From positions 62,001-121,547 of IMG/VR virus record IMGVR_UViG_3300014666_000034: a stretch of 59,547 bases of DNA; one strand, written 5' to 3'. This document shows, piece by piece, positions 1,340-51,752 of this stretch. The notes under the pieces are model-generated. The model saw only the letters and a list, made by a program, of their open reading frames with translations. It was not told the origin of the DNA and searched no databases. The stretch is from an uncultured virus (IMG/VR IMGVR_UViG_3300014666_000034). Its lineage: Duplodnaviria; Heunggongvirae; Uroviricota; Caudoviricetes. Within the stretch, counting starts at the first letter, position 1; each line of letters begins with the position of its first letter. The translations under genes were made by a program, and so were the position numbers.

Positions 1340-1386
1340 AATTCTATAATACAAATAAAATTCTTATTTCAAAAGGAGGAAATAAT

Positions 1387-1653
1387 ATGAGCGAATATAA
1401 ATGTATTAGGGTAATAAATAAAGAATTATCAAAAGAAGACTTTAAAAAGGCATACAATTTTTTGTGTAAATTAGAAACTGGTATCATATCAGAAGACGGA
1501 TGTTCTATCTTATTTAGTGGAAAATCAGAAAAGAAACAAAGATTTTCAGTTGATTCAGGTTGTTACACTACGGAATTAAGGGCTTTTACACAGGCCGTAA
1601 AGTGGTATCTGGGAAAATATGAATATGGTGTAGAAGTTCATATTTGTGAATAA
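1387..1653 (+). CDS. Hypothetical protein
   Basis: RBS AAGGAGG; flanked by motif copies at 1356 and 1651. Confidence 0.7.
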   Translation: MSEYKCIRVINKELSKEDFKKAYNFLCKLETGIISEDGCSILFSGKSEKKQRFSVDSGCYTTELRAFTQAVKWYLGKYEYGVEVHICE

Positions 1654-1691
1654 AACTATTCTTTCAAGTGGAAAATATGGAGGTAAAAACA

Positions 1692-1886
1692 ATGAAGTTA
1701 AAAGACGCAAAGTTAGCATACGCAAATAATAAAATGGTGCAACACAAAGAGGAAGGCAGAATTTGTAATTATATTAGCTGTTTTGATGATGATGAGACGG
1801 GAGTATATTTAAAGCATACACATACTTTTATACCGTTGGAAAAACTTCAGCTATACAATGTACATGATTATTATAAATCATGTTAG
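1692..1886 (+). CDS. Hypothetical protein
   Basis: RBS GGAGGT before ATG 1692. Confidence 0.65.
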   Translation: MKLKDAKLAYANNKMVQHKEEGRICNYISCFDDDETGVYLKHTHTFIPLEKLQLYNVHDYYKSC

Positions 1887-1913
1887 AAAATAGTATATTT
1901 TATTTCCAGTCAG

Positions 1914-1950
1914 AAGCCATTAGAGAATATAACTCTAGTGGCTTTTATAG
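1914..1950 (+). terminator. Intrinsic terminator-like hairpin
   Basis: AAGCCATTAGAG/CTCTAGTGGCTT followed by TTATAG. Confidence 0.6.
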
Positions 1951-1991
1951 CGGGAATAACACGAAGAATAAATCGTATGGAGGATTATATC

Positions 1992-2567
1992 ATGAAAAAA
2001 GAATATACAGTAGAACAATCAGCAGAAAAAGTATGGTGGTATAAATTTGCAGAACCAAACGCAAAAGGCGAAACACTTACAATTGAATTATCATTATGTA
2101 CTAATTGGGGTGGAAATCGTGCGCTGCCTGTTTTATGGAAACAGCATGGATATATAGACAGGGTCTTAGAAACTTATTGGTGTATTTCAACATACGTGAC
2201 AGATACAGAGGGAAGAGGTTGGGGCGCATATAATCCACAAAGCAAACGGAGCGAAGACGGTAAACGTGCGGTTATAAATTTTAAATGGATGTTTGAAGCT
2301 ACAGAGGGCAATAGAGTAAAGTTGATTGATGAAGTATATAGGATGTTTTCAATGGCTACAGGCGAAACGGCTACAGAAGAAAAGTACAGGAAAGTTAGAG
2401 AGTATGCAGAAGAACGCAACATTGAAGTATTAACAGAAATGCCAGAAGGTTGGCTTGATCTTGGTTATTGCACTGCTCCTATTGGTTCAATATATGTTGG
2501 AAATATGAAAACCAATATTCATACATTGAGAGACGTGAATAGAAAAGAAGCGTTACTATTGGTTTAA
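1992..2567 (+). CDS. Hypothetical protein
   Basis: RBS GGAGG before ATG 1992. Confidence 0.75.
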   Translation: MKKEYTVEQSAEKVWWYKFAEPNAKGETLTIELSLCTNWGGNRALPVLWKQHGYIDRVLETYWCISTYVTDTEGRGWGAYNPQSKRSEDGKRAVINFKWMFEATEGNRVKLIDEVYRMFSMATGETATEEKYRKVREYAEERNIEVLTEMPEGWLDLGYCTAPIGSIYVGNMKTNIHTLRDVNRKEALLLV

Positions 2568-2612
2568 TGATGTATAAACCACGATTTGACATAGAAAGGG
2601 TTGGTATAAAAT

Positions 2613-2795
2613 ATGGCAAGATACAATAGAACAAGTTTTTCTGCTTATTTAGAGGATTGCGACTATAAAGGATATAAGACATATATTTGGATTGAGAACA
2701 TGAAAATACGTTATTTTTATTTACAAACAGCGGAGGACCACACAAAGACTTTTGATACTCTTGCAGATTTATATGATTACATCGATAACAAATAA
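2613..2795 (+). CDS. Hypothetical protein
   Basis: 60-aa ORF in gene run. Confidence 0.6.
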   Translation: MARYNRTSFSAYLEDCDYKGYKTYIWIENMKIRYFYLQTAEDHTKTFDTLADLYDYIDNK

Positions 2796-2815
2796 AAGCA
2801 TAGGAGGAATAAACC

Positions 2816-3794: not shown

Positions 3795-3834
3795 GTGCCA
3801 TAAAAAGTAAGTTTCCTTTGGAAATGGAGGTAAT

Positions 3835-4071: not shown

Positions 4072-4156
4072 GATGAAATGCACGTTTGATGGTGAGCGAT
4101 CGGAAAATATTTAACCGGTTGCTTTTATTATGCTCAAAATCAGGAAGGAGATTGTA

Positions 4157-4507: not shown

Positions 4508-4538
4508 TATGAAATACATGATTTATTCCCTTTAAAGA

Positions 4539-4829
4539 ATGGAGAATGACATGAGAACAAAAACGTTAAATAATGCGAAGTTTATTGTCACTGTAGAAAG
4601 TGATAAAAAGACGCGAACAATAAAAACCAGTTCAATCCTTGATAATAGAACACAAAAGAATTTAACAGAAGATTATATACATGAACGTGGAATTGAGTAT
4701 TTTTTAAATATGAATGATTTAAAAGAAACATTGAACTGGAATCTAAATGGAGACAGCGAAAAATATCAGTTTAAATGGGGGCAGTCAGGAAGTAAAACAA
4801 CAGAGGGGCGAGCTTACATTTTTGATTGA
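4539..4829 (+). CDS. Hypothetical protein
   Basis: Bounded by motifs 4510 and 4827; stop inside motif. Confidence 0.65.
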   Translation: MENDMRTKTLNNAKFIVTVESDKKTRTIKTSSILDNRTQKNLTEDYIHERGIEYFLNMNDLKETLNWNLNGDSEKYQFKWGQSGSKTTEGRAYIFD

Positions 4830-4854
4830 AAAGCACATTTTAAGGGAGGATTTT

Positions 4855-5533: not shown

Positions 5534-5725
5534 ATGGAGAAAGCAAACAAAAATATAGAAACTTTAATTGATATGATTATAACTTTACGAAAACAGCAAG
5601 GAGTGGGTTATTGTTGTGATCCTGAATCGCAGGCTGACGGATTGTGTTTTCATGATTGTAATGGATGTAAAGAGACGTTTTATCAAATAATGAAAAATAG
5701 AATGATGGAAACATATTGTGTATAG
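5534..5725 (+). CDS. Small Cys-rich hypothetical protein
   Basis: CC..C..C..C; stop inside motif 5723. Confidence 0.6.
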   Translation: MEKANKNIETLIDMIITLRKQQGVGYCCDPESQADGLCFHDCNGCKETFYQIMKNRMMETYCV

Positions 5726-5775
5726 AAGTGTGCTTTTATTTGGAGAATATAATAATCGAAAGAGAGGTAGTCAAT

Positions 5776-6623: not shown

Positions 6624-6890
6624 ATGAAAATGTGTAAATTTTGTGAGCGTAGACAGGATATTAAATTCGGTTGGCAGCAACCGTCACTTGAGAACCTACA
6701 TGGGAATATTGTGAAAGAATTAGAAGTTAAGGCCGTAATCCATGATTACCAGACCACTAATCCGGAATTGATTATAACTTCTAATAGATTTTTTCCTGAT
6801 TTAATTGGAACAGATGGAGTAGCCACAATTTATATTCCTATAAAATTTTGCCCTAACTGTGGTAGAGAATTGGGAAAACAAAGCAGATAG
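6624..6890 (+). CDS. Zinc-ribbon protein (CxxC...CPxCG), paralog of 7862-8152
   Basis: CKFC...PELII...FCPNCG. Confidence 0.7.
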   Translation: MKMCKFCERRQDIKFGWQQPSLENLHGNIVKELEVKAVIHDYQTTNPELIITSNRFFPDLIGTDGVATIYIPIKFCPNCGRELGKQSR

Positions 6891-6926
6891 AAGAGATATT
6901 TCAAGCCGAAAGGAGAAGACTAACTT

Positions 6927-7628: not shown

Positions 7629-7664
7629 TAAAAACAAGATTTAATTAAATAGGAGGATAACTAT

Positions 7665-7829
7665 ATGGAAGAATTAATAACAAGAATCCAAGAGGCATAT
7701 GCAGATTGTACTACGGTTAAGGAAGTAGCTGAGGTATATGCATTAATAAAAATGGAGAATCAAAAGCAAATGGAACTTACAATGGATTATAGAGTTAATT
7801 CGGAGATTGAAGAGGCAAACTGCGAATAA
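7665..7829 (+). CDS. 54-aa hypothetical protein (below track cutoff)
   Basis: RBS AGGAGG; stop is first triplet of motif 7827. Confidence 0.6.
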   Translation: MEELITRIQEAYADCTTVKEVAEVYALIKMENQKQMELTMDYRVNSEIEEANCE

Positions 7830-7861
7830 ATCCACAATTTTAACCAAAAAGAGGTGATACT

Positions 7862-8184: not shown

Positions 8185-8403
8185 ATGAATTATGGAGTGG
8201 CATATTGTAGTTCAAATGGAAGCGCATTTTCAAAAACAGAGCCATACATTGAAGAAGCTGGAACCACATTAAAAGAATGTGAAGTGGTTTTAAATGAATT
8301 GGTAAAAGTGGGATGCTGCCAGTTAACACCTTTTGAGATGAAAGATGTCTTAGAAAGTTATACGTGGGAATACGTGAACAAGCACAAAGTATTCTTGCTT
8401 TGA
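8185..8403 (+). CDS. Hypothetical protein
   Basis: RBS AAGGAG; stop inside motif 8401. Confidence 0.65.
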   Translation: MNYGVAYCSSNGSAFSKTEPYIEEAGTTLKECEVVLNELVKVGCCQLTPFEMKDVLESYTWEYVNKHKVFLL

Positions 8404-8717
8404 AATAAGTGATTTATATGACGATTTGGAAAGGCTGATCTTTTGGGAAGATAGATTAAATTCTGAAATGTGGCAAGAAGAAAAGATTTCAGAGTATATG
8501 TATCTCAAAAATGTAATTGATAGATTGTTAAATAAATGATTTTAAGCAAAGATATGATTAATGAGAATGGAGAAAGATAATATGAATAAAGATAAACAGC
8601 CGGTATTATATCCCGGAGACAAGATAATTGTAATGAAAACGATCCACATGTATGGTATGATAATATGAAAGAAGCACTTGAAAATGCAGGATTTACATTG
8701 TCTAAGGAGGTGGCATA

Positions 8718-10221: not shown

Positions 10222-10336
10222 AGATAAAAGGATTATTTTATAGTGAGATTGATGCTATGTTGCTTTTGAATTAGGAAAATTTCGAAGTACAAGCGCTTTA
10301 TAGTTATAGAATCTGCATTTAGAAAGGAGTAAAGTT

Positions 10337-10928: not shown

Positions 10929-11288
10929 ATGATAAATAATTTTTTAAACAGGAACAATAATTTAGATTCTTTAATAATTTTAGCGATTGGAATCATTATA
11001 CCATTTGTATCCAAATTAATATTTTCTCTTGCTTCTAAAGTAATAAAGAAGTTAGGTCATGTTATTAAATATGAATGTAGTAATTTTAAACGTAGAATGG
11101 CTGGAAAATATACTTTATATGAGATTGAAAAGATTAAAGAAAAACCTGAAAATAAAAGGAGTAAAAAAGAACAAAAGGCGTTAGAAGAATATGAAAAGAT
11201 TATGAAAAACATGGGGGAAGAAATTAGAAGTTTTTCTAACAAGATAAAAGTTATGAATAATGTTATTTCTAATAGAAATGAAAAATAA
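10929..11288 (+). CDS. Membrane-anchored hypothetical protein
   Basis: RBS GGGAGGAGG; one TM segment. Confidence 0.65.
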   Translation: MINNFLNRNNNLDSLIILAIGIIIPFVSKLIFSLASKVIKKLGHVIKYECSNFKRRMAGKYTLYEIEKIKEKPENKRSKKEQKALEEYEKIMKNMGEEIRSFSNKIKVMNNVISNRNEK

Positions 11289-11313
11289 AATAATAGTTTA
11301 ATGGAGGTTATAA

Positions 11314-11751: not shown

Positions 11752-11798
11752 TTTTGATGCATCAATAAAATTTGAGATTTATAAAGAAAGAAGAATTT

Positions 11799-12692: not shown

Positions 12693-12738
12693 CTCAATAT
12701 CGATGAAATCCAAGGTTCATATGGAGAAGGGGCATAAT

Positions 12739-13086
12739 ATGTACATAATAAAAGATAGCAATGAAAGGTATTTTGTGAACTGGATCGGCAGCACTCCGGT
12801 GTTTAATGGGGATATATCTTCTGCAAAGGTATTTAATGAGGTTGAAGCAAACGATGCTTTAAAATCCCTAAATAGAATAAATAAAAACAAGTACGAAAAA
12901 ATATTGTGCAATAAAACTCTTATAAAGTCAGGGGTAAACAGAAACAACCCTGAGTGGTATCGTCAGCAGATAGAAGAATTACTAAAGCAATATGAACAGA
13001 AATCAAAAGACACTTATGATTCAGATGGAGCATATCTGGTTTACGAACAAATTGTTGACGAGTTGGGATCAATATTATACGAATAA
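12739..13086 (+). CDS. Hypothetical protein (last unit of array 1)
   Basis: Bounded by motifs 12704 and 13084. Confidence 0.7.
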   Translation: MYIIKDSNERYFVNWIGSTPVFNGDISSAKVFNEVEANDALKSLNRINKNKYEKILCNKTLIKSGVNRNNPEWYRQQIEELLKQYEQKSKDTYDSDGAYLVYEQIVDELGSILYE

Positions 13087-13121
13087 AACTAGGTTTTCAA
13101 ATGAGTTTATGGGTAGTAAAT

Positions 13122-14407: not shown

Positions 14408-14656
14408 ATGAACGAAGACACCGCGAAGATTGACAACAAATCGAGTGAACGCCTTGTTAAAGAGGCATTAGAGATGAGAAAAGAAAAAGGGCTAACCCAA
14501 AGAGAGCTGTCTCAATTGAGTGGAGTTAATTTATCTGTAATTACCAAAATGGAAAATGGAACGTCATATCCTAAACTATTTACATTTTTAAAAGTTTTGG
14601 GAGCGTTAGATGCAACTCTTCGGTTGGTTCAGTTAAAAGATAAGGCAGAAGAATAA
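14408..14656 (+). CDS. XRE-family helix-turn-helix regulator
   Basis: RKEKGLTQRELSQLSGV...ITKMENG...P. Confidence 0.85.
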   Translation: MNEDTAKIDNKSSERLVKEALEMRKEKGLTQRELSQLSGVNLSVITKMENGTSYPKLFTFLKVLGALDATLRLVQLKDKAEE

Positions 14657-24188: not shown

Positions 24189-24229
24189 CCGATAAAAACG
24201 GAATTTCAATGGAGAAAGGAGATTAAAAT

Positions 24230-24478
24230 ATGATGGCATGTTTGTTGATATTAACTACATCGATATGTGGAATTGGTGTCTTAGGTGGAGTACTTCCACT
24301 TGGAATAGTATTTATTTTATCTTTAGTTGGATGTCTATATTGTTTTATCACGTTGATAAGTTTAAAGCTAAGCGAACTTGGAATAGCACTTCTTGTAAGT
24401 AACGGTATCTTTCTTACATATACAAGCTTCTATCTATTTTTAGGAATAGATTTACTTGTGAAAATTGGGTTAAAATGA
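24230..24478 (+). CDS. Small multi-TM membrane protein
   Basis: Almost wholly hydrophobic; bounded by motifs 24193 and 24471. Confidence 0.7.
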   Translation: MMACLLILTTSICGIGVLGGVLPLGIVFILSLVGCLYCFITLISLKLSELGIALLVSNGIFLTYTSFYLFLGIDLLVKIGLK

Positions 24479-24509
24479 ACCTTTCAACGAGATGATGGGA
24501 GAAAAAATA

Positions 24510-24803: not shown

Positions 24804-24834
24804 TAAAATGGTTCTTCTATTGGAGGAAATAAGA

Positions 24835-24993
24835 ATGGATATGAGCGATTGGATTTGTGATCATTTCAAATATATGGAAGTCAAACGTTATCCAGAAGCA
24901 GATGTTAATATTTACGTATGCGAGAGAACTGGAAAGAAGTTTGATGAATTTCATAGCCCGTGTAATAACTGTAAATATGACACATCAAAATAA
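24835..24993 (+). CDS. Small Cys-rich protein
   Basis: RBS GGAGG; stop inside motif 24991. Confidence 0.55.
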   Translation: MDMSDWICDHFKYMEVKRYPEADVNIYVCERTGKKFDEFHSPCNNCKYDTSK

Positions 24994-25240
24994 AATAAAT
25001 TTTTCATCGTGAAAGGATATGTGTAATGGAGGGATATTGTCAGCAATGTATCTGTACAGATAGACAAAAGTCGCATAAAGAGTTTAAGAATTATGAAATT
25101 ATGATTTATTGTACTAGCAAAAAATGTGATGTTAATTGCTATGGTAAACAAGCGTGTTTCGCAGAAAATAATAATTGGCAACATTTGAACGATTAAAGAG
25201 GGATTTCAAAGCCGAAAACGGCAGAAAGAAAGAGGTTAAT

Positions 25241-25678: not shown

Positions 25679-25874
25679 ATGAATTCAAAATTTGAAAGGA
25701 GAAACATAATGATATGGGATATTTGCAAGACGCCAGGGATCGTGAAAGTCATTCCAGCAATTTTATGGCACAAAGAGAAGAAACTGTTGGAATTTGGCTG
25801 GTTGAAATGGTCATACGTAATTAAGCTAAAGTAAGTTGAAAGGTTGTTTTTATTGGTGAAAAAGAAAGGAGATT

Positions 25875-26983: not shown

Positions 26984-27055
26984 GCGATGAATCATGTCTT
27001 TCAACTGCTTTTGGAGGTGATATAAATAAAACGAAACAGAGAATCACAATGTAGG

Positions 27056-30273: not shown

Positions 30274-31392
30274 ATGCAGAAACCACAGATTAATGTAATT
30301 AAACCAGATATTAAAAATTTATCAATCTATTTAAGGTCAACTAAGAAATTTGGAAAGACAACACTTTTTAGAGATGTAATTCTTGCAAAATATGGAGATG
30401 CTTCAAGAGGACTTTTGGTTGGTTGTGGGAACGAAGTTGGATATAAAATGCTTGATAACTTAAATGTTACCCAGGTCAAAACATACAAGGATATGATTGA
30501 ACTTTCAGATTGGTTAATCAAAGAAAAGGGGAAAGAGCATAATATTGAAATTATCGCTTTTGATACTGGAGATGAACTTACACTGATTACGGATACTGAG
30601 ACAATCAGGCAGAGTAACATTGAAAACCCGAATAAGAAATGTAAGTCTGTAAAAGCCGCATTTGGTGGATACACAGCAGGAGAAAAATATTCAGCTAATG
30701 ATTTGGTTAAGCCATATATGACAAAGTTGCAAGAAGCTGGATTTGGGGTGTGGGCTATTGCACATACGAAATTCAAGACAATCAAGGAAAAGGGTGGACT
30801 TGAGGAAGATGGTTATATGCAGTTATCTTCTAATATGAGTGCTGATTATGAAGCCGCATTTGGTGATATTTTTGATGTGGTTCTCACCGGTGTAATTGAT
30901 AGAGATTTAGAAGAAAAGAAAGTGGGAGACAAGACTAAGAAATATACAACTGATACTGTTCGTAAGTTGTATTTCAGAGGTACTACTTTGATTGATGCCG
31001 GTGGGCGATTTGCAGATGGAGCCGTACCGGAATATATGATATTTGATAAACCTGATATGGGTTCGGAATTCATTAAAGTTGTAGAAGAGGGAATGGAAAA
31101 ATCTAAGACAACATTTGATAAGCCAAAGACATCAACAAAGTCCAAGAAGGAAGAAAAGAAACCAGATCCACTAGAAGAATCGGCAGATGATATTGATATA
31201 ACACCACCATTTGAAGAAGAAACTAATACTTCCGATTATCCAGATAACCTAGAGGAAGTCATCAGAGTCATGTTCAAGGAGTGCAAGGACAAGGACTTGA
31301 AAGCAGAAGTAAAAGCAATCATCAACTCTTTTGGTAAATTAAATGATTGTGATGACAATGCTTTGAAGGAAATTTATGACAAATTGAAATAG
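30274..31392 (+). CDS. AAA ATPase (Sak4/AAA_24-like recombinase)
   Basis: Walker A-like STKKFGKTT, Walker B IIAFDT, IAH. Confidence 0.7.
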   Translation: MQKPQINVIKPDIKNLSIYLRSTKKFGKTTLFRDVILAKYGDASRGLLVGCGNEVGYKMLDNLNVTQVKTYKDMIELSDWLIKEKGKEHNIEIIAFDTGDELTLITDTETIRQSNIENPNKKCKSVKAAFGGYTAGEKYSANDLVKPYMTKLQEAGFGVWAIAHTKFKTIKEKGGLEEDGYMQLSSNMSADYEAAFGDIFDVVLTGVIDRDLEEKKVGDKTKKYTTDTVRKLYFRGTTLIDAGGRFADGAVPEYMIFDKPDMGSEFIKVVEEGMEKSKTTFDKPKTSTKSKKEEKKPDPLEESADDIDITPPFEEETNTSDYPDNLEEVIRVMFKECKDKDLKAEVKAIINSFGKLNDCDDNALKEIYDKLK

Positions 31393-39980: not shown

Positions 39981-40033
39981 TTTATATTTTTGCCTTGAAA
40001 CATATTTTTCATCCGAGATTGGAGGTGATCTAT

Positions 40034-40493: not shown

Positions 40494-40692
40494 TAATTGG
40501 AATTTATTCAAAGATGAGAAACCAAAAGCCGGTGAATCAGTATTGTTCCAAGCAGAACGTGACGGGCATATGTATATCGGATACATTACACCCTACGGAG
40601 GAGTTAAGTGTATAACGGCAAGAAATTCTACCGTAACCGGCATGAAGCCTATCGCTTGGATGAAGTTACCTGAAAGACATAAAAAGAGTTGA
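40486..40692 (+). CDS. DUF551-like protein
   Basis: W.....KP....VL...PIAWMKLP. Confidence 0.65.
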   Translation: MNNNWNLFKDEKPKAGESVLFQAERDGHMYIGYITPYGGVKCITARNSTVTGMKPIAWMKLPERHKKS

Positions 40693-40782
40693 AACAGTGG
40701 TTTCATAGGGAATTTTAATCAACATATGGTATGTGAAACGAGGTTTAATGACTATATATAGTAGGCGAAAGGAGAATTTAAA

Positions 40783-41285: not shown

Positions 41286-41294
41286 GGGAGAAAA

Positions 41295-41492
41295 GTGAAA
41301 ATAGAAAATATTGATATGTCCGTTAGGTTATATCATCAATTACACTTAAACGGAATTGTAAATATTGATAACTTGGGTTCTCTTTCAAAAGAAGACGTTA
41401 TTATGTGGAGAAACTTTGGGAGACAGTGCTTATGGGAACTACTTGAAATTATGAAACGGTATAATGTGAGTTTTAATGATGGAGTAAATTAA
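41295..41492 (+). CDS. Stand-alone RNA polymerase alpha-CTD-like protein
   Basis: IENIDMSVRLYHQL..NGI..I..L...SKEDV...RNFGRQCL.EL matches the alpha-CTD pattern LSVR.YN.L...GI...RNLG.KS. Confidence 0.75.
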   Translation: MKIENIDMSVRLYHQLHLNGIVNIDNLGSLSKEDVIMWRNFGRQCLWELLEIMKRYNVSFNDGVN

Positions 41493-41726
41493 AACGAGTA
41501 TTTCATGTGGGTACATGGTGTATAGCGATTGGTTCGAGTCCAATATGCTATGAACAAGGTGCCGGTGTGGCAACAATCTTCAGGATAATTGAATCTTATT
41601 TATAAAACAGAATAACGATTTGGCAGATTGTTATTTATAATACAGACACTACACGTAAAAATTCAAGAATAAATAGAAATGAAACTCCGCTTTTAAACAG
41701 AAAAGTTGCACAGAGGAGGTGAGCCT

Positions 41727-42999: not shown

Positions 43000-43011
43000 A
43001 ATATATGTACA

Positions 43012-43752: not shown

Positions 43753-43786
43753 AAGAATGATTTCTTTAGGAAAGGAATAAAGCGGA

Positions 43787-43975
43787 ATGAGCAACAGAGA
43801 ATTATTTGCTAATACAATTTCAGATATGGGGAGTCGCTCTACACACTTTGAAAATGAATGTGAAAGATTCGGAATGACATGGGGGTGTAAGCCTGATTGC
43901 CCCGTATTTGAACGTGGGGAGTGTGAACTTCAAGAAGAGAATGAGGAAATGTTTGTTAGAGAAGATATAGAATGA
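43787..43975 (+). CDS. Small Cys-rich protein
   Basis: Bounded by motifs 43750 and 43968. Confidence 0.6.
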   Translation: MSNRELFANTISDMGSRSTHFENECERFGMTWGCKPDCPVFERGECELQEENEEMFVREDIE

Positions 43976-43995
43976 CGATTTTAAAGGAGAATAAT

Positions 43996-44193: not shown

Positions 44194-44225
44194 ACTAAAA
44201 CCAACATGAAAGAGAGGATTTAAAG

Positions 44226-44633: not shown

Positions 44634-44848
44634 TGAAAGTAACGATTCATGAAAGGATTGGATAGATGGACAAAAACAATTTTGACAAAATGGTTGATGA
44701 ATTAATTGAGTCATGCTTTGAGGTCGCTACAGGGAATTACTACAACGACAGATGTTTAGAGTTTGATGACGTATTAGAGATATTACAGAAATATATTTCT
44801 ATAGAACCAAAGAAATAATACTTTCAATATGAAAAGAGGTGATTCCAA

Positions 44849-45058: not shown

Positions 45059-45075
45059 AGAAAGGAGTGTGGATT

Positions 45076-45846
45076 ATAGAAAATAATAAAATAGGTGAAG
45101 TTGTAAAAAATAATAAAGGAACAAAAATGGAGATTATTAAATACCGTAATAAATCTGATATTGATGTAAAATTTCTTGACAAATTTCATTATATTCGTAA
45201 ACATACAACATACGTTAATTTTAAAAGAGGTCAGATTAAAAATCCATACGATAAAAGTGTATTCGACCTTGGTTTTGTTGGAGATGGTAAATATATGACA
45301 TTTGCAAATAAAAGACCAACTAAACAATACATATCATGGTTTTCTATGATGAGAAGATGTTATTCGAATTTAAATTATTATTCGTTGTATGGAGGCATTT
45401 GTACTGTATGTGACGAGTGGCTTGACTATCAAGTATTTGCAAAATGGTATGATGAAAATTACATTGAAACAGAAGAGAGACTTCATCTTGATAAGGATAT
45501 CTTATATCCAGGGAACAAAATATATTCACCGAATAATTGTTTGCTAGTTCCTCAAAGAATAAATGAACTTTTTACATATAAATCAAAAACTGATGGACTT
45601 CCAATCGGAATAAAAAGAACTGATTCTGGTAAGTTCAGCAGTACATATGGCGGCAAATATCTCGGGTCATTTAATACATTAGATAAAGCATTTGAGATTT
45701 ATAAATTGCATAAAGAAGTCAATATTAAAGATGTCGCCGAAAAATATAAGGATGTTATATCTGAAAAACTGTATTCTGCTCTTATGAATTACGAAGTGCT
45801 GATTGAGAATGATGCTAATTATAACAGAGAGTCGGAAGTGAGGTGA
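45076..45846 (+). CDS. Free-standing HNH-like homing endonuclease, paralog of 27934-28695
   Basis: NFKRGQIKNPYD, MMRRCY, VCDEW, LHLDKDIL.PGNKIYSP..CLLVPQ.INE. Confidence 0.7.
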   Translation: MENNKIGEVVKNNKGTKMEIIKYRNKSDIDVKFLDKFHYIRKHTTYVNFKRGQIKNPYDKSVFDLGFVGDGKYMTFANKRPTKQYISWFSMMRRCYSNLNYYSLYGGICTVCDEWLDYQVFAKWYDENYIETEERLHLDKDILYPGNKIYSPNNCLLVPQRINELFTYKSKTDGLPIGIKRTDSGKFSSTYGGKYLGSFNTLDKAFEIYKLHKEVNIKDVAEKYKDVISEKLYSALMNYEVLIENDANYNRESEVR

Positions 45847-46178
45847 TTAATATATACGGAAATGTTGGTGAAAAGTGGGTTCAAATTAAAGAGTTAAAAT
45901 TGGGAGCCTTAGATCTCAGAGAGATAGGAACTGAATTTACAATAAAGGATTACTATTCTGTGCCACACGGCTTTGCTTCAATTGAATATAAGGGTGTTTT
46001 ATTATTCATTCCTGATAAAATATTCGAGGAGCATTTTGTTAAGTGGAGCGAGTATAAACAGTATTATCAGCTTGGAGATAGAATAATGATAAATGCCAAT
46101 GGCAATTTTAGTACATACCTTATTGAAAACATAACAGGTGCTGGACATTATGTGACGTTGGAACTTGAACAGGATTGA
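45843..46178 (+). CDS. Hypothetical protein
   Basis: GTGA overlap. Confidence 0.65.
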   Translation: MINIYGNVGEKWVQIKELKLGALDLREIGTEFTIKDYYSVPHGFASIEYKGVLLFIPDKIFEEHFVKWSEYKQYYQLGDRIMINANGNFSTYLIENITGAGHYVTLELEQD

Positions 46179-46530
46179 GGTTTTGGTGGATAGAAAATAT
46201 CAGAAAAGGGTGCCGAGATTGGTAATCCTGATCGTGAAGATTGGACAATTGAGAGTTGGAATAATAGATGGGAGTGTGGCTGTGAAAATTGAATTAGAAA
46301 ATAGAAGCACCATAGAAACCTTGGAGTCAGAGGATAAACCAATTCGTGGTAAACGAGCAAATATAAATCCATGGTGTTATGACTTTGAGAGACCTGGAAT
46401 TAGTGATGAAAAATTAGATGAAGTATTGGAACCATTTATGGTAAATAATTCGCCTGACTTTAAGCGTGAATATGATTGTATTTGGTGTTCGTCAAGAAAG
46501 GAAAATAATAAAGGAGATTGTAATGGATAA
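46165..46530 (+). CDS. Hypothetical protein (start uncertain)
   Basis: 121-aa ORF filling gap. Confidence 0.45.
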   Translation: MNRIEVLVDRKYQKRVPRLVILIVKIGQLRVGIIDGSVAVKIELENRSTIETLESEDKPIRGKRANINPWCYDFERPGISDEKLDEVLEPFMVNNSPDFKREYDCIWCSSRKENNKGDCNG

Positions 46531-46780
46531 ATGGATTAGAGTGCTAGATCACCAAGCAGCAATTATGCCAAAAGAAAATTGTAAAGTGTGGGTTACTAGG
46601 ACAAATTGTTTTTATGAAATATGGGTACAGATAATTGATTACTATGCAGACAGCGGAAGATTTGATTGGGATGGTGTTAGAGCGTGGATGCCTTATCAGG
46701 AAGAAAAGCCAGAACCATATGATTGCAGTAGATACTTTGCAGGTAAACCTAAGACATTTAAGGTTGTCCATTGTCGTTGA
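46523..46780 (+). CDS. DUF551-like protein
   Basis: KWI...MP...VWVT...VRAWMP...PEPY. Confidence 0.65.
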   Translation: MDKWIRVLDHQAAIMPKENCKVWVTRTNCFYEIWVQIIDYYADSGRFDWDGVRAWMPYQEEKPEPYDCSRYFAGKPKTFKVVHCR

Positions 46781-46812
46781 AATCAACATTTCAAAAGGAG
46801 GATCTATGAATA

Positions 46813-47013
46813 ATGAATATACTTGAGAGTCAGAGTTTTAGAAAAAGAGGAGTGTTAATCAATTCAACAATAGAATTTAATGAAAATGATGAAAGAGAAT
46901 ATCTCGAAATGGTAAACGAGATTGAAGATGCAATTACTGATGTCTTGGATAAAAGAGGTCATGTTTTATTAGTTGGTTCCATTAAGGGATTAACGGCAAA
47001 CGACTTGAAATAA
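46813..47013 (+). CDS. Hypothetical protein (start uncertain)
   Basis: ORF following motif 46778. Confidence 0.5.
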   Translation: MNILESQSFRKRGVLINSTIEFNENDEREYLEMVNEIEDAITDVLDKRGHVLLVGSIKGLTANDLK

Positions 47014-47029
47014 TAGGAGGTGAAACTAT

Positions 47030-47233
47030 ATGAGTAATAAAAATGCAGAGAAGTTATTTCAGAAAACAGCAGAAGATACAGTAAATAAGGTTAGGTTAGC
47101 TGGTATGAGAGCGGGAGCTACCGGCATTCTAGGAGCCGTTTTGAATATGTGTAACGAAGGAAAGAGTGTTGATGATATTAGGCTGTTTTGTGAACAATCA
47201 TTAAATTTAGACGGAATGAAAGGGGATAAGTAG
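47030..47233 (+). CDS. Hypothetical protein
   Basis: RBS AGGAGGTG. Confidence 0.7.
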   Translation: MSNKNAEKLFQKTAEDTVNKVRLAGMRAGATGILGAVLNMCNEGKSVDDIRLFCEQSLNLDGMKGDK

Positions 47234-47234
47234 T

Positions 47235-47510
47235 ATGAGATATATTTCAGATGACAATAAAGTATTTAATTCAGAGCAGGAGTGTTTAGAACACGAAAAG
47301 GTTTTAAACGAAGAGAAAATCAAAAGAGAAAAGTTAATCACAGAAAGGAACAAACGTAAAGATGAAGTTATGGCAGCTTATGATAATTTTATAAAACTGT
47401 CTCATAAATTCACTGATGATTATAATGAACCACTTACTTTTGATAGCGGACTGACCGATTTATTATATCCGTTTATGAAGTCATATCCAAGAAGATTGTT
47501 TGATTTATAA
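47235..47510 (+). CDS. Hypothetical phage protein
   Basis: YISDD.KVF.SEQECLEHE pattern, coiled coil. Confidence 0.7.
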   Translation: MRYISDDNKVFNSEQECLEHEKVLNEEKIKREKLITERNKRKDEVMAAYDNFIKLSHKFTDDYNEPLTFDSGLTDLLYPFMKSYPRRLFDL

Positions 47511-47521
47511 GGAGACAGAAT

Positions 47522-47920
47522 ATGACAAAAATAGAAAAATTTAAAGAACTCAAAAGAGATATGGAAAACAATATTAAATCTGTCCAGTATTGTTTAGGTA
47601 ATAAACTTGACAAGGATAGATGCAGTTATATTAAGGATTCAAGTAATGACAAACATGATTTCAAATTTTCAAAAGAAAAGCATCATTCTTCTGTTCCGAT
47701 ATTTTTTGACGCATACTATGGGTACTATGGAGATAGTGGCGTGTCAATATTCAGGAATGAATTTTACATAGAATGCCTTACAGAAGCTATTAATTCATAC
47801 CTTCCAGAAATAAGAGATCTGACAGAAATGATTATGAAAGACAAAGTGAAACTTGCTCTATCCGAAGCGAAAGGCGAAGCAGAAAGTATTATAAGTCAAG
47901 CAAAAGAATTAGAACTTTGA
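47522..47920 (+). CDS. Hypothetical protein
   Basis: RBS AAGGAG; stop inside motif 47918. Confidence 0.7.
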   Translation: MTKIEKFKELKRDMENNIKSVQYCLGNKLDKDRCSYIKDSSNDKHDFKFSKEKHHSSVPIFFDAYYGYYGDSGVSIFRNEFYIECLTEAINSYLPEIRDLTEMIMKDKVKLALSEAKGEAESIISQAKELEL

Positions 47921-47955
47921 AACGGAAGTTTCATTATAAAAATTGAGGTGGAATT

Positions 47956-48147
47956 ATGGTAGAAGTATTGGAACATGGTGATAAAACAGTTGTCGATTGT
48001 ACTCTTTGTGGGGCAAGGTTGAGATATTCGAAAAGTGATATTAAGCAAGAGGAAGTTTTTGAGACTCAAAGATACAGTTATTTTAAAAACTATATTGTAT
48101 GCCCCGATTGTGGAGAAAAGGTAACAATCAAACAGAAGGAGAAATAG
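47956..48147 (+). CDS. Zinc-ribbon protein
   Basis: CTLCG...CPDCG. Confidence 0.7.
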   Translation: MVEVLEHGDKTVVDCTLCGARLRYSKSDIKQEEVFETQRYSYFKNYIVCPDCGEKVTIKQKEK

Positions 48148-48152
48148 GTTTA

Positions 48153-48722
48153 ATGAAGATATTTTTTGATACGGAATTTACTGGACTTAGAAAAGATACC
48201 ACTTTAATCAGTATCGGTTTAATTTCAGAAGATAAAAAACAGTTTTATGCTGAGCTAATAGATTACAAAGAAGATCAGTGCGACGATTGGATTAAAAAGA
48301 ATGTCATTGATAAACTATATAAAACTGATTGGCACAAAAGAGAATCAGAGTACATCCCGAATTATCATTTAGGGTGCAAATTAGAAATTGGTAAAGTCCT
48401 ATGTAATTGGTTGGCTCAATTCGATAGTGTTGAATTTATCTCAGATGTTTGCCATTATGACATGGTTTTACTAATTGATTTACTTGGAGGGGCGTGGCAT
48501 TTACCTCAAAATCTATGCTCTGCCTGTTATGACATTAATCAAGATATCGCAAGAAAATATGGAATTTCCATGAAAGAAGCTTTTGATAAGTCAAGAGAAG
48601 ATATTTTGTATCAGCATTATAAAGAAAATAGGGTACAAGGTGATAAGCACAATGCTTTATATGATGCCAAGGTTATTCGTGAATTATATCAGATTCTTAA
48701 TAATGTAGATTATGAGAAGTGA
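48153..48722 (+). CDS. DEDDh 3'-5' exonuclease (Rv2179c-like)
   Basis: FFDTEFTGL, LISIGL, YD, HNALYDA. Confidence 0.8.
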   Translation: MKIFFDTEFTGLRKDTTLISIGLISEDKKQFYAELIDYKEDQCDDWIKKNVIDKLYKTDWHKRESEYIPNYHLGCKLEIGKVLCNWLAQFDSVEFISDVCHYDMVLLIDLLGGAWHLPQNLCSACYDINQDIARKYGISMKEAFDKSREDILYQHYKENRVQGDKHNALYDAKVIRELYQILNNVDYEK

Positions 48723-48746
48723 AATTGGGATTTCAAAGGAGGTTTT

Positions 48747-48944
48747 ATGAATAAAAGACCACTAATTTATTGCAATAAAATAAGAGATTATTACTTTGTT
48801 TGGATTTGGAAAATTAGTTTAATTTGGATCACAAATGCTGAACATACAAATCCAGATAAATTCTTTGAGATTTGGAACGGAAAAGCGAAAGCAATTATAT
48901 TTGGTAAGTATGGTATCGGTATTGGGAACAGTTTCGGATCATAG
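48747..48944 (+). CDS. Hypothetical protein
   Basis: RBS AAGGAGG. Confidence 0.6.
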   Translation: MNKRPLIYCNKIRDYYFVWIWKISLIWITNAEHTNPDKFFEIWNGKAKAIIFGKYGIGIGNSFGS

Positions 48945-48952
48945 GAGGTTAA

Positions 48953-49381
48953 ATGACAAATAAAGAAGCAATTAAATCTTTGCAAAATATTGTTGAATAT
49001 TGGGCCGTGCGTCCAACAGAACAGGAGGCAGCAAAATTAGCAATTAAAGCATTAGAGCAGCAAGAAAAAGATCAGTGGATTCCCATAAGTGATGAAACAA
49101 ATCCCAAAAAGAGTGATATATACTTGGCAACATTTGAAGAAAACGGAAACAGGTATGTCGAAAGGTTCTACTTTTCAAATTTTAATGGCTGGCTGATGCC
49201 TATTCCGTGGCAAGATGAAGGACATATAGACAAAATGATTGCATGGCGACCATTCCCAGAACCACATAAAGAACCTGACCTGGTTGAAAAAGTCAAGGAA
49301 GATTTATCAAACTGGACTCAGTGGAAGAAGGATGCTTACAATGAAGAGTTTGTATCTGCACATTCTACAAAATTAGAGTAG
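48953..49381 (+). CDS. DUF551-domain protein
   Basis: QWIPIS...P...YL...IAWRPFPEP. Confidence 0.65.
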   Translation: MTNKEAIKSLQNIVEYWAVRPTEQEAAKLAIKALEQQEKDQWIPISDETNPKKSDIYLATFEENGNRYVERFYFSNFNGWLMPIPWQDEGHIDKMIAWRPFPEPHKEPDLVEKVKEDLSNWTQWKKDAYNEEFVSAHSTKLE

Positions 49382-49421
49382 ATGAAACTGGACTTTCAAA
49401 GGTAAAATAGGAGGAAGTTTA

Positions 49422-49688
49422 ATGTATATAGACGTAAATATTAGTGGCAATACATATTCAATCACTATTTATAGAAATGGTGTTGCAGAATATGTCAGAT
49501 CAAAAGATATGAGACTATTAAGCCACTACGTAAAGAATCTAATTGAATCGACAAACGAAGAAGTATTTGTTGGTCAGCGTGGAATTGAAAAATATTTTGC
49601 TGACTGCCTTGAAGAAGATGGAGTAACTTACACTCCTATGACATATTCTCATGTGGTAGATTCGGATAAGTTTAAAGTTATTGATTGA
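49422..49688 (+). CDS. Hypothetical protein
   Basis: RBS AGGAGG; bounded by motifs 49383 and 49686. Confidence 0.7.
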   Translation: MYIDVNISGNTYSITIYRNGVAEYVRSKDMRLLSHYVKNLIESTNEEVFVGQRGIEKYFADCLEEDGVTYTPMTYSHVVDSDKFKVID

Positions 49689-49723
49689 AAGTGAAATTTC
49701 AAATAGAAAATGGAGGTGATAAC

Positions 49724-50200
49724 ATAAAGGTCATATTTTTAGATATTGACGGAGTGCTAAATTTTAATGGTTGTCGGGATAAAATTGGAGGACTATATTT
49801 CGTAAATAATAATCGTATTAAGCTGCTTAAAAAAATCATTGATGCCACAGGCGCAAAAATAGTTTTGTCTTCCACATGGCGCATCGGTTGGTTTGATAGA
49901 GATTATAGTATACATAGCAGAAACGCAGAGGATTTTACCAAATTAGAAAATAAATTAAAAGAGTACGATATAACATTTATTTCACGGACACCAAGACTTG
50001 CAAGTGGATATCGTGGAGAAGAAATAAAAACATGGATTGATAACTGGAAAGGTGAGCCAGTAGAATCATTTATCATTATTGATGATGATGCGGATATGAA
50101 GCCGTTCATGAACAGATTGGTTCAAACATCGTTTAACAAAGGATTGCAACAGAAAAATGTTGACAAGGCAATACTGTTACTAAACGGAGAAAGAAGGTGA
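49724..50200 (+). CDS. HAD-family phosphatase (RNA-repair 'Swiss army knife' HAD type), ATA start
   Basis: KVIFLDIDGVLN, IVLSSTWR, RG.EI..W, IIDD. Confidence 0.8.
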   Translation: MKVIFLDIDGVLNFNGCRDKIGGLYFVNNNRIKLLKKIIDATGAKIVLSSTWRIGWFDRDYSIHSRNAEDFTKLENKLKEYDITFISRTPRLASGYRGEEIKTWIDNWKGEPVESFIIIDDDADMKPFMNRLVQTSFNKGLQQKNVDKAILLLNGERR

Positions 50201-50206
50201 AAATGC

Positions 50207-50524
50207 ATGAGAACATTTAAGTGTACAGTGACGAGAGAAACCACTATGGATATTACAATTGATGATTCTATATGGACTGATGACGAGATCGAGGAGTGGA
50301 GCAAACACTTTCAGGACGCAGATGATTTAGAAGAACTGGTAGAGAGATTGGCTGCTATGAAGGTTAATCATGAAGACGGAGAATTTTTAGAGGGGTTTGG
50401 TGTTCCACTGATTGATGGTAAGAAGCCATATTCATATCTAAAAGATGACCAGATCGAAGATTCTATCAATATTCGTAATCAGGAAGAATCTATCGATGTA
50501 GATGTTGAGGAAATTACATATTAA
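50207..50524 (+). CDS. Acidic hypothetical protein
   Basis: RBS AAGGTG. Confidence 0.7.
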   Translation: MRTFKCTVTRETTMDITIDDSIWTDDEIEEWSKHFQDADDLEELVERLAAMKVNHEDGEFLEGFGVPLIDGKKPYSYLKDDQIEDSINIRNQEESIDVDVEEITY

Positions 50525-50533
50525 GGAGGGTAA

Positions 50534-51667
50534 ATGTCGGATAAAGAAAATTCATATGTCAAACAAATACTGTCTGGAATTGCGATTTCTGTCGGAGTAT
50601 CCGCTATAACGGGTGCTGCAAAGATAATCAAAGGACTTAAAAGTTCAGTCATCGATATCGGAGAGTGGGACAGGTCGTATAATAATATCAACAAACTAAT
50701 ATACAAGTTGAATCCTGACACATACACGAAGAATCGTATTCCAACAACCAATAAAGATTATTATGAATTATGTGGCGATACGGCATATTTCATCAAAGTC
50801 AAAAAGAATAATTTTGTCAAGGTAGAAACCTATAAAAATATGAAAGATAAGTCGTACTATCCTGAAAATAGACTGAAAATCATCTTCTATGGAAAGGAAA
50901 GATATGCTATAAGGGAACGGTTTTTAAATGATGCATTAAAGATTGCAGACGATAATCATATCAGAGTTCAATACTTAAATGAACAAGAAATGAATTGCGA
51001 TATTATTCCTCACTCTTTTGACAATATAGTGTTGGATTCATCAGTAAAAAAAAGAATAATCAATGGTCTTGATAATTGGGGATCAAGTAAAAATTGGTAT
51101 CAAAATCATCAGTTAGTACACAAGATTGGCGTTTTTCTTTATGGTAAGCCAGGAACGGGTAAGTCAACTATCGCGAAAGCCATAAGTACAAAATTTTCTA
51201 ATGCACCTATCCTGACCATTGATCCTCAAAACATCATGAGCTCGATAAATGGAATTCTAAAAATGAGAAAGAAGTATGATGGCACAATTATTGTTTTAAT
51301 AGAAGATTTTGATATGTTCTTTAAAAGCAGAGAGGAAATAGAAGGTGTGGAGCTTGATGCCGCACAGAAAAAGCAGAAAGACGTAAATCAAAATGCGATA
51401 TTTCAGCTTTTAGACGGTATCTATTCTACTGAGAATACTATTTATGTTGCCACAACGAATTATAAAGACAGGATTGATTCTGCGTTAATACGATATGGTA
51501 GATTTGATATCCAGGAAAAACTTGATTATTTTGATAGAAGCCAAGCTTTGGAATGTTTGAAACTACTAGGATATGGTGAAGATTTGTTAGATAAATTCTC
51601 AATTGAGCTTCCGGTACAACCATCACTTCTACAGAGCAAGGTTATGGAGCACAGAGCAATTTATTAG
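50534..51667 (+). CDS. Membrane-anchored AAA+ ATPase (BCS1-like)
   Basis: N-terminal hydrophobic helix; GKPGTGKS, IEDFD, ATTN, DSALIRYGRFD. Confidence 0.8.
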   Translation: MSDKENSYVKQILSGIAISVGVSAITGAAKIIKGLKSSVIDIGEWDRSYNNINKLIYKLNPDTYTKNRIPTTNKDYYELCGDTAYFIKVKKNNFVKVETYKNMKDKSYYPENRLKIIFYGKERYAIRERFLNDALKIADDNHIRVQYLNEQEMNCDIIPHSFDNIVLDSSVKKRIINGLDNWGSSKNWYQNHQLVHKIGVFLYGKPGTGKSTIAKAISTKFSNAPILTIDPQNIMSSINGILKMRKKYDGTIIVLIEDFDMFFKSREEIEGVELDAAQKKQKDVNQNAIFQLLDGIYSTENTIYVATTNYKDRIDSALIRYGRFDIQEKLDYFDRSQALECLKLLGYGEDLLDKFSIELPVQPSLLQSKVMEHRAIY

Positions 51668-51752
51668 CAAATCAATAAAAGCATAGATTCAATTTTATTC
51701 ACATCAATAACAATCCCAACAATTTTACAATTAAATATAGGAGGCAAAAGAC

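Follow-up and report, generated by a model that had tools for sequence, protein, structure and literature searches.

A palindromic junction element with ordered, position-specific spacers in the accessory gene arrays of an uncultured phage

Many accessory genes of the uncultured tailed phage IMGVR_UViG_3300014666_000034 (Caudoviricetes) are separated by copies of a 16-bp element, T[AG]AAA-N6-TTT[CT]A, in which two inverted 5-bp arms enclose a 6-nt spacer. We have analyzed the last 59.5 kb of this 121.5-kb virus record, which we call G000 and which has a completeness estimate of 76%. This whole stretch of 59,547 nucleotides is the window, and positions are given in window coordinates unless another record is named. 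The spacer differs from site to site within the window, and related phages keep the same spacers in the same order while the sequences on either side of them are replaced. Judging from this comparative pattern, the sites are very probably the crossover points of a slot-wise gene exchange, whatever the machinery that performs it. That the machinery is a spacer-matched site-specific recombination is a more tentative proposal, in which we infer both the catalysis by an enzyme and the identity of that enzyme.

Is the motif real? The exact motif occurs 21 times in the window, compared with a mean of 2.42 in 100 dinucleotide shuffles (standard deviation 1.36, maximum 7). Scanning all spacings from 0 to 20, N6 gives the 21 copies and every other spacing gives between 0 and 6; with the arms in reversed order, N6 gives none. 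In a blind ranking of every 5-mer inverted repeat, TGAAA-N6-TTTCA comes out on top, with 9 copies versus 0.2 at other spacings. An earlier reading of the same DNA from its letters alone, which we call the original prediction, had listed 18 exact copies. All 18 are confirmed, and those at 30254, 52997, and 56636 complete the 21. The copy at 30254 is in the replication operon, where its spacer is a ribosome-binding site, and it may be a chance match.

Allowing up to one mismatch results in 70 sites versus 45.4 expected (standard deviation 7.0), and thus the one-mismatch class taken as a whole is near chance. It is the position near gene ends that tells the real one-mismatch copies from the chance ones. 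The zone extending from stop-8 to stop+25 of the called genes amounts to 6.2% of the window, and it contains the start of 16 of the 21 exact sites (1.3 expected) and of 20 of the 49 one-mismatch sites (3.0 expected). In total there are about 38 credible junction sites in the window (Table 1), a number that is based on a simple in-house set of gene calls. The original prediction had put the number of copies at about 45; the one-mismatch examples that it named (4074, 6888, 12704, 26988, and 44634) are present, but the credible count is lower.

The sites are not distributed evenly over gene junctions. In the three accessory runs, 15/35, 8/18, and 12/26 junctions have a site (35/79 in total), compared with 0/8 junctions at 14.7-22.6 kb, 0/12 in the replication region, and 1/10 in the nucleotide, lysis, and integrase region (1/30 in total; Fisher p = 2e-5). 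The claim that the copies fall in three accessory runs and not in the core operons therefore holds, and the excess is strong both against shuffled sequence and against core junctions. The units delimited by sites consist of 1-3 open reading frames (ORFs). The first triplet of the site is often the stop codon of the upstream gene: this is the case for 14 copies using our own gene set (including TAG-AA variants), and for 17 copies using all + strand ORFs of at least 35 aa. The overlap with stop codons is thus as originally described, but the count of 18 such copies is not recovered with either gene set. In the left 62 kb of the record, the structural part, there are 7 exact copies, of which we judge 2 (22071 and 61799 in that record) to be at gene junctions.

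To ask what happens to the sites in evolution we need relatives, and these came from protein-anchored searches: loci L005-L007 (records G001-G003), locus L016, and 61 loci around DnaE homologues. A nucleotide search of deposited phages with the polymerase gene finds no match, and by DnaE protein search the nearest deposited ones are distant large Firmicute phages with at most 54% identity. The number of exact N6 sites per whole record is 28 for G000, 28 for G001, 34 for G002, 29 for G004, 18 for G006, 32 for G007, 12 for G009, 9 for G008, and 6 for G010; other spacings in these nine records give 0-12. The motif is a trait of several sub-lineages, and it is absent from at least one.

These genomes are mosaics. 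The structural and nucleotide modules of G000 are in common with G001 (80-100% aa identity), and its replication module is in common with G004 (98-100% aa), while the replication genes of G001 and G002 are only 26-43% identical to it. At the DNA level, the whole replication module (28707-40012) is 96.7% identical to L017/G004, and its right border is the site at 39996. Because its replication module matches one lineage and its structural and nucleotide modules match another, G000 is a recent hybrid of the two. The genes common to the window and G001 are collinear. At the junction 3' of the ERCC4 gene, among the loci with an ERCC4 match, a motif copy adjoins the stop codon only in the window and L017; a few of the other loci have a one-mismatch motif 20-40 nt farther downstream.

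The signal that we consider most informative is in the spacers. No spacer is repeated among the 70 window sites. When the window is compared with G001, 25 pairs of sites have identical spacers, and 24 of them form one collinear chain; using reverse-complemented spacers as a control, the values are 2 and 1. For G002 there are 12 pairs with a longest chain of 11 (control 1 and 1), and for G004 there are 23 pairs with a chain of 15 (control 6 and 4). The comparison with L016 gives 11 pairs in a collinear chain. The chains between G001 and G002 and between G001 and G004 also exceed their controls (8 versus 3-4). There is no excess of spacer pairs over control involving G006, G007, G008, G009, or G010, except for G009 versus G010, in which the pairs are in opposite orientation and form a chain of 9. 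For site pairs in syntenically compatible places, 24 have spacers at distance 0 (versus 0.1), 10 at distance 1 (versus 3.2), and 30 at distance 2 (versus 26.6), so that the excess over background is essentially limited to distances 0 and 1. Spacers of orthologous sites differ at about 4% of their positions. In this way, 30 of the 38 junction sites have a match in at least one relative, and the spacer behaves as an address.

The addresses are kept in the presence of unrelated neighbors. Of 50 chain pairs, selected for having identical spacers, 28 are unrelated in both of their 60-nt flanks, meaning that neither flank has an alignment above the 99th percentile of random pairs. The spacer tttgag is common to G000, G001, G002, G004, and L016 with four different left flanks. 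We also looked for exact matches of at least 15 nt with G001 outside alignable DNA (exact 13-mers are swamped by chance matches). There are 38 such matches. Eight of them overlap a site, and 7 of those 8 fall on the syntenic diagonal. Most of the remaining 30 are dispersed away from it; among the few close to it is a match made up of the ribosome-binding site and the right arm of site 46778. Some of the slots between equal addresses have no detectable ORF similarity (1356-1651, 40690-41490, 44207-44634, and 44634-44811, with z about 0), and the slot lengths can be very different, for example 210 versus 3187 nt. A few equal-address slots hold diverged homologues (z = 9.2 and 5.4).

The arms do not follow the spacer. 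In the 24 chain pairs with G001, arm positions 2 and 15 each agree in 12/24 cases, which is the expectation for two unlinked states. Arms are identical in 27/32 cases when they are beside a homologous flank, compared with 25/68 when beside an unrelated one (p = 1e-5); after removing 8 chance sites in the shared replication module, the comparison is 11/16 versus 25/68 (p = 0.026). The arms travel with the cargo and the spacer is the shared piece, and thus the exchange points must lie within the 12-14 nt that separate arm position 2 from arm position 15.

Another view is given by the ends of homology, and breaks between relatives do fall on the sites. Blastn alignments with G001 have an end on a site at 4827, 7627, 7843, 10241, 13100, 24476, 41695, and 44813, those with L016 at 12703, and those with L017 at 40012 and 40705. 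Altogether, 12 of 83 alignment ends are within a site +/- 1 nt, a span that is 2.1% of the window.

The original prediction viewed each site-bounded unit as a mobile cassette, inserted or excised in integron-like fashion at any site by a recombinase tolerant of unlike spacers. The units of 1-3 ORFs and the variation of content between relatives stand, and two local observations would suit free movement: the cargo gene at 12703-13086 is before the tttgag address in G002 and two sites after it in the window (the only displaced cargo seen), and G002 has the address order tatcca, accgaa, cgatta where G000 and G001 have tatcca, cgatta, accgaa (59752-60936 of the reverse complement of G002 versus 61434-63666 of G000, the only non-collinearity seen). 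Address order is otherwise collinear (24/25, 11/12, and 11/11 pairs), as are the genes shared with G001, and we find neither an attC structure nor an IntI-type integrase. Free mobility is thus not supported, and we give this explanation little credence. Because the spacers are position-specific and their order is conserved, exchange looks allelic, from one address to the same address, as opposed to excision and re-insertion anywhere.

What kind of object is the site? For the analysis of its symmetry we pooled 75 exact sites from the window and from 80 kb of each of two relatives. The consensus extends to W-TRAAA-y-N4-r-TTTYA-W. The symmetry goes outward, with A/T at position -1 in 72/75 sites and at position +16 in 70/75, and also inward, the first spacer base being C/T in 51/75 and the last one A/G in 46/75. 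Information content is at background beyond position -3/+16. Positions 2 and 15 are independent of each other (A/C 23, G/C 19, G/T 18, and A/T 15 of the 75).

If the site acted as RNA, for instance as a small hairpin at the 3' end of a cistron that signals processing, stability, or translational coupling, positions 2 and 15 would be the place to look for covariation, and there is none: the commonest combination is A/C (23/75), which does not pair. The folds of 10 sites have energies between 0 and -5.5 kcal/mol (z-scores between -2.96 and +0.84), and although a hairpin that pairs the two arms is the fold of lowest energy in 6 of them, it is missing in the other 4. A scan with Rfam finds no family match at any site. 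An RNA signal would account for the junction copies being all in one transcription direction and for the 17 that overlap a stop codon, but it leaves the site-specific conserved loops unexplained. The RNA processing alternative is thus weak, and we consider it extremely improbable. The sites are not transcription signals either. There are 43 promoter-like hits at 39.9-51.8 kb versus 57.2 expected, so no enrichment, none of the hits on the + strand of 39900-51800 is at a site, and 0 of 8 terminator-like hits are at a site. The element is a double-stranded DNA site with the signature of being read by a symmetric dimer, and not a hairpin, a promoter, or a terminator. That inverted arms around a 6-bp spacer fit the geometry of a tyrosine recombinase core site, as had been proposed, is borne out by N6 being the only enriched spacing.

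We can now describe a mechanism that would produce these observations. A dimeric protein would bind the sites as double-stranded DNA targets. The sites would split the accessory arrays into slots of 1-3 genes, with each 6-bp spacer as an address, and related phages would keep the addresses in order and exchange the contents between them. Each arm would stay with the cargo beside it, the left arm often giving the cargo its stop codon and the right arm preceding the next ribosome-binding site, such that only the spacer is in common between partners. The process would be a conservative site-specific recombination: an enzyme bound to the arms would make its cuts where the spacer begins and ends, and it would require identity of the spacers of the two partners, as do tyrosine recombinases acting on lox, FRT, or dif. 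Equal addresses in two co-infecting or resident genomes would then recombine, and slots would be swapped in register. As unlike spacers within one genome would not recombine, there would be no self-deletion. That all the sites have one palindromic frame in common implies that they are read by the same protein. It is conceivable, and we put it forward with some reserve, that this is a natural array of about 40 heterospecific sites with short palindromic arms and an ordered list of spacers kept across a phage lineage.

Which protein could it be? G000 encodes three tyrosine recombinases, two in the window and one in the left part. A link between the sites and a recombinase was part of the original proposal, but by comparison of homologues and of phylogenetic profiles none of the three could be connected with them. 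The reader may be an enzyme of the host or a small protein that evolves fast. One other candidate was tried: an AAA ATPase (50534-51664) tracks the address-sharing clade, and we dropped it after finding a 48% identical homologue in locus L136 with no site within 10 kb on either side. That homologue (L136 10001-11089) is in a metagenome-assembled genome labelled Candidatus Izemoplasmatales, with 0 motif copies in 21 kb.

The main alternative is that the site is a multi-copy operator of a dimeric phage or host regulator, reused as a short linker by general or annealing recombination. An example would be a repressor that blocks read-through of accessory genes, in the manner of the stoperators of phage L5. 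The spacers would appear conserved only because crossovers need matching spacers. A palindrome with independent half-sites does suit a helix-turn-helix dimer, there are about 38 copies in short intergenic gaps, and the phage encodes integrases as well as an HTH_3 protein. It also encodes an AAA_24 protein, from a family that we take to be Sak4-type annealing recombinases. Many breakpoints have no site, and no dedicated recombinase tracks the motif. Precedents exist in the 24 and 34 repressor sites, mostly intergenic, reported for L5 and Bxb1, and in the boundary sequences proposed as recombination points, both in the part of PMC3029335 that we draw on, and in the shuffling reported at the promoter-early stem-loops (PeSLs) of other phages in the portions used of PMC2839356 and PMC4122927. 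An operator of this kind should, as a silencer, act too in the replication, switch, nucleotide, and structural operons, and these are without sites. No regulator tracks the motif in the profiling of nine records, and homologues of the HTH_3 regulator are present also in the motif-poor G009 and G010. Where flanks have been swapped, the sequence in common is often no longer than 11-12 nt, and it is needed on both sides of at least 28 site pairs; such a length is very short for an exchange driven by homology. Moreover, the window sites are symmetric, unlike stoperators, which the same part of PMC3029335 describes as asymmetric and oriented. All considered, the operator explanation is a real but somewhat doubtful possibility, only a little less probable than spacer-matched recombination, which is our best reading.

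An endonuclease that cuts within the spacer, in the way of restriction enzymes whose recognition sites are interrupted, could also do it, if its breaks or site-specific sticky ends lead to repair from, or joining to, the genome of a co-infecting relative, with the flanks exchanged in register. The 5-6-5 geometry and the spacer-matched exchange suit a cut within N6, and nuclease genes are present in the arrays (Mrr_cat, PvuRts1I-like, ERCC4, and two HNH-endonuclease-like paralogues). Yet none of the nucleases tracks the motif in the nine-record profiling, and there is no ligase gene in two Pfam scans, which took in 101 ORFs of the window and, for the left arm, 43 of its 64 genes of at least 60 aa. 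The phage would have some 40 sites of its own to protect, and TAAAA/TTTTA half-sites lack a cytosine for the C5 methylase that it encodes. We regard a nuclease as unlikely.

Spacer-matched recombination at the sites has its own difficulties, and the following results weigh against it. Junctions with a site are not richer in alignment ends than those without one (16/39 versus 12/42, p = 0.25), near-identical relatives (L055-L066) have many indel ends without a site, and certain variable segments are bordered by a site at just one of their two ends. These results imply that gene gain and loss do not require the sites. The selection of chain pairs by spacer identity means that strongly diverged orthologous spacers go unseen, and the swapped addresses of G002 described above also count against it. 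The flank-swap pattern is seen in one clade of five records (G000, G001, G002, G004, and L016); in other motif-bearing clades the pairs are either near-identical or without common addresses, and none is informative. As for the enzyme, no ORF family is present in all six motif-rich genomes and in neither of the two motif-poor ones (the best reaches 4/6), in a profiling of 9 whole records that are 61-100% complete and with blastp, which is insensitive for small proteins. A homologue of the 303-aa recombinase was found in G001 only, and Xer-like recombinases are present also in the motif-poor G009 and G010. Finally, arm conservation is only 5-7 bp, and the arms of lox, FRT, and dif are 11-13 bp.

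Table 1. Junction sites (16 bp, named by their spacers) and candidate proteins, in window coordinates. Exact, T[AG]AAA-N6-TTT[CT]A; shared, identical spacer in the relative; strand is given as '.' for sites.
Feature	Position	Strand	Remarks
ttctta, exact	1356..1371	.	collinear in G001 and G004, both flanks unrelated
ctattc, exact, TAA = upstream stop	1651..1666	.	shared with G001 and G002, both flanks unrelated
agtaag, 1 mismatch	3801..3816	.	shared with G001 (right flank homologous) and G004 (flanks unrelated)
tgcacg, 1 mismatch	4074..4089	.	shared with G001, G004, L016
tacatg, 1 mismatch	4510..4525	.	5 nt past stop; no address match found
agcaca, exact, TGA = stop	4827..4842	.	G001 homology begins at first base; shared with G002, L016
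gtgtgc, TAG stop variant	5723..5738	.	shared with G001, L016; G001 lacks one gene upstream
gagata, TAG stop variant	6888..6903	.	shared with G002, flanks unrelated
acaaga, 1 mismatch	7629..7644	.	G001 homology begins there; shared with G001, L016
ccacaa, 1 mismatch, TAA = stop	7827..7842	.	G001 homology ends there; shared with L016
taagtg, 1 mismatch, TGA = stop	8401..8416	.	shared with G002, L016, flanks unrelated
ggatta, exact	10225..10240	.	G001 homology ends there, spacer 1 off; shared with G004
taatag, 1 mismatch, TAA = stop	11286..11301	.	shared with G002
tttgag, 1 mismatch	11766..11781	.	spacer and ATTTA arm same in G001, G002, G004, L016; four left flanks
tccaag, 1 mismatch	12704..12719	.	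L016 homology begins there, spacer 1 off
ctaggt, exact, TAA = stop	13084..13099	.	shared with G001 (flanks unrelated), L016
acggaa, exact	24193..24208	.	shared with G001, L016, flanks unrelated
tgaacc, exact	24471..24486	.	G001 homology from first spacer base; G001 has TAGAT-tgaacc-TTTTA
tggttc, 1 mismatch	24804..24819	.	shared with G002, L016
taaatt, exact, TAA = stop	24991..25006	.	shared with L016
gaggga, 1 mismatch	25193..25208	.	shared with G002
ggttgt, exact	25837..25852	.	5 nt past stop
catgtc, 1 mismatch	26988..27003	.	7 nt past stop
catatt, exact, right border of replication module	39996..40011	.	11.3-kb L017/G004 block (96.7%) ends 1 nt later
cagtgg, exact, TGA = stop of ORF 40486-40692	40690..40705	.	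L017 homology ends at last base; shared with G001, G004
cgagta, exact, TAA = stop	41490..41505	.	shared with G001, flanks unrelated
ctccgc, exact	41680..41695	.	G001 homology ends at last base
tgacga, 1 mismatch	43968..43983	.	shared with G001, flanks unrelated
gagagg, 1 mismatch	44207..44222	.	shared with G001, flanks unrelated
gtaacg, 1 mismatch	44634..44649	.	19-nt exact island in common with G001
taatac, 1 mismatch	44811..44826	.	G001 homology begins within left arm
tcaaca, exact, TGA = stop	46778..46793	.	syntenic place in G001: tctaca
cggaag, exact, TGA = stop	47918..47933	.	shared with G001, flanks unrelated
ttggga, exact, TGA = stop	48720..48735	.	shared with G001, arms different there (TAGAA/TTTTA)
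ctggac, exact	49383..49398	.	18-nt exact island in common with G001; also L007
gtgaaa, exact, TGA = stop	49686..49701	.	missing at homologous G001 junction
gcatag, 1 mismatch	51676..51691	.	G001: gcattg after homologous AAA ATPase gene
gatggt, exact, overlaps start of gene 53003	52997..53012	.	G001 block ends inside; only core-region junction site
Tyrosine recombinase, 303 aa	13207..14118	+	Pfam Phage_integrase 4.5e-13; candidate only, no link to sites
Tyrosine integrase at record end	58294..59547	+	Pfam Phage_integrase 1.3e-29; homologues in G001, G002, G010; candidate only
AAA_24 protein, replication operon	30274..31392	+	Pfam AAA_24 1.2e-13; bears only on exchange by short homology
HTH_3 (Cro/CI-type) regulator	14408..14656	+	Pfam HTH_3 2.4e-11; candidate site binder (as operator)

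The long genes of the window are all on the + strand, and its G+C content is 30-37%. The Pfam scan of the window identifies a beta clamp, a DnaB-type helicase, DnaE, an ERCC4 nuclease, NrdD/NrdG, a dUTPase, and a lysin, in addition to the two tyrosine recombinases and the one HTH_3 protein. The left 62 kb of the record contain tail and lysis genes, the third, Xer-like recombinase (XerC/D-like, G000 38902-39855, - strand), and a ParM-like actin (ParM/ALP-type, G000 55819-56721, - strand). The combination of this actin and the XerC/D-like recombinase suggests a plasmid-like prophage lifestyle. The record is classed as a provirus, and an integrase gene is at its end.

Several other features of the window deserve mention. 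A Type-P5 twister ribozyme (Rfam RF02684, 52.9 bits with a gathering score of 37.6) is at 35-103 on the + strand, directly upstream of the beta-clamp gene, and it is kept in G001 and G002 (alignments 29-109 and 30-102). A defence-type cluster at 10337-22547 includes Mrr_cat, a PvuRts1I-like protein with an SRA domain, a MazF/PemK-like toxin, two GmrSD_N proteins, DUF6551, and a sigma-70 region-2-like protein; a single 718-aa ORF of G001 matches three window ORFs, namely both GmrSD_N proteins and the sigma-like one. Within this cluster there is a tRNA-Gln (anticodon TTG) at 16265-16337 (+). A T-arm-like stretch 3' of 41505 was considered as another tRNA and rejected, as neither ARAGORN nor Rfam makes a call. 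Two free-standing HNH-endonuclease-like paralogues (27961-28692 and 45067-45843; PHROG 953, E = 1.9e-53 and 4.4e-50) are within the accessory arrays and have blastp homologues in G002 only. A 65-aa protein at 41295-41489 is an RNA polymerase alpha C-terminal domain alone (Pfam RNA_pol_A_CTD, 7.7e-10), an unusual stand-alone form for a phage. An insert at 42980-43365 is on the - strand, with a 79-aa ORF (43251-43012), a perfect TTGACA-16-TATAAT (43365-43338), and a hairpin resembling a terminator (42999-42980); it has the appearance of a moron-type unit within the + strand array.

Has such an element been described before? Searches of open-access text found no paper with the motif in several spellings, and nothing describing such an element among the papers listed under phage gene cassettes and intergenic repeats. 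The closest systems that we know each share part of its properties. The attC sites of integrons are long, imperfect inverted repeats, which fold into bulged hairpins. Like integrons, our arrays consist of small ORFs separated by recombination-type sites, often with the stop codon within the site. Unlike in integrons, the sites are 16-18 bp and have no long imperfect palindrome, there is no IntI-type integrase (the NCBIfam model TIGR02249 gives 21.7, 40.6, and 25.4 bits for the three tyrosine recombinases, with a cutoff of 265), and the cargo stays at fixed addresses instead of entering at a single attI. Integrons have been reported in phages (Qi et al. 2023, PMC9892861), with parts of the classical kind in the portion of that paper considered here. 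The element is not an integron, and the analogy originally drawn does not extend to membership.

In T4-type phages, PeSLs (Arbiol et al. 2010, PMC2839356; Comeau et al. 2014, PMC4122927) consist of a sigma-70-like promoter and a terminator stem-loop, and homologous recombination between copies is reported in the sections of both papers used here. They are, according to those sections, short conserved elements between small non-essential genes of hyperplastic regions, and exchange points for unrelated sequences; our sites, too, are found where the genomes vary, at the edges of indels and replacements. In contrast, the 16-bp element has no promoter, no terminator, and no hairpin covariation, its copies within a genome differ in their spacer, and from one genome to the next a given spacer holds its place. 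The element is not a PeSL, though it plays the role of one.

The stoperators of L5 and Bxb1, cluster A mycobacteriophages, are 13 bp, asymmetric, oriented with transcription, and found genome-wide (PMC3029335, from the passages on these sites). They resemble our sites in being tens of copies of one protein-binding-type site in the short intergenic gaps of a temperate phage, and they differ, as far as those passages go, in that ours are symmetric, have a free spacer, and are confined to accessory arrays. The boundary or linker sequences at lambdoid mosaic junctions, mentioned in the same source as proposed crossover points, are similarly short sequences kept between unrelated modules, as in our 28 of 50 address pairs with unrelated flanks. 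Our sites add to this a common palindromic frame genome-wide and ordered, unique spacers.

It has long been asked how phages exchange accessory genes exactly at gene borders, and two answers stand: homologous exchange at conserved linkers, or random illegitimate joins followed by selection. The junction elements here are readable from sequence, having a protein-type frame and ordered spacers while both neighbor genes are replaced. If a regulator site is being reused by general recombination, this would be the clearest case for the linker model that we know of outside T4-type phages. If exchange is driven by an enzyme, it would constitute a compact and multiplexable recombination system of practical use, and it would explain how large gut-type phages can renew their accessory genes, defence-type genes included, without scrambling gene order.

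The core sites of tyrosine recombinases, such as lox and FRT variants and dif, are inverted arms around a 6-8-bp asymmetric spacer that the partners share. Sites with unlike spacers do not recombine, and after exchange the arms stay with their flanks. Our sites are like these in the inverted arms around a 6-bp spacer. The comparative pattern of shared spacers, with arms that follow the flanks, fits an exchange of this kind indirectly, the pairs having been selected by spacer identity. They are unlike them in having just 5-7 bp conserved per arm, in occurring as about 38 natural sites per genome, each one with a different spacer, and in that no cognate enzyme was found among the profiled ORF families. 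We place the element as a junction element mediating modular exchange, which may be a natural heterospecific site array. If that were true, one recombinase could swap any slot between co-infecting relatives in register and without deleting parts of its own genome, and the array would be a natural counterpart of recombinase-mediated cassette exchange with spacer variants of lox and FRT.

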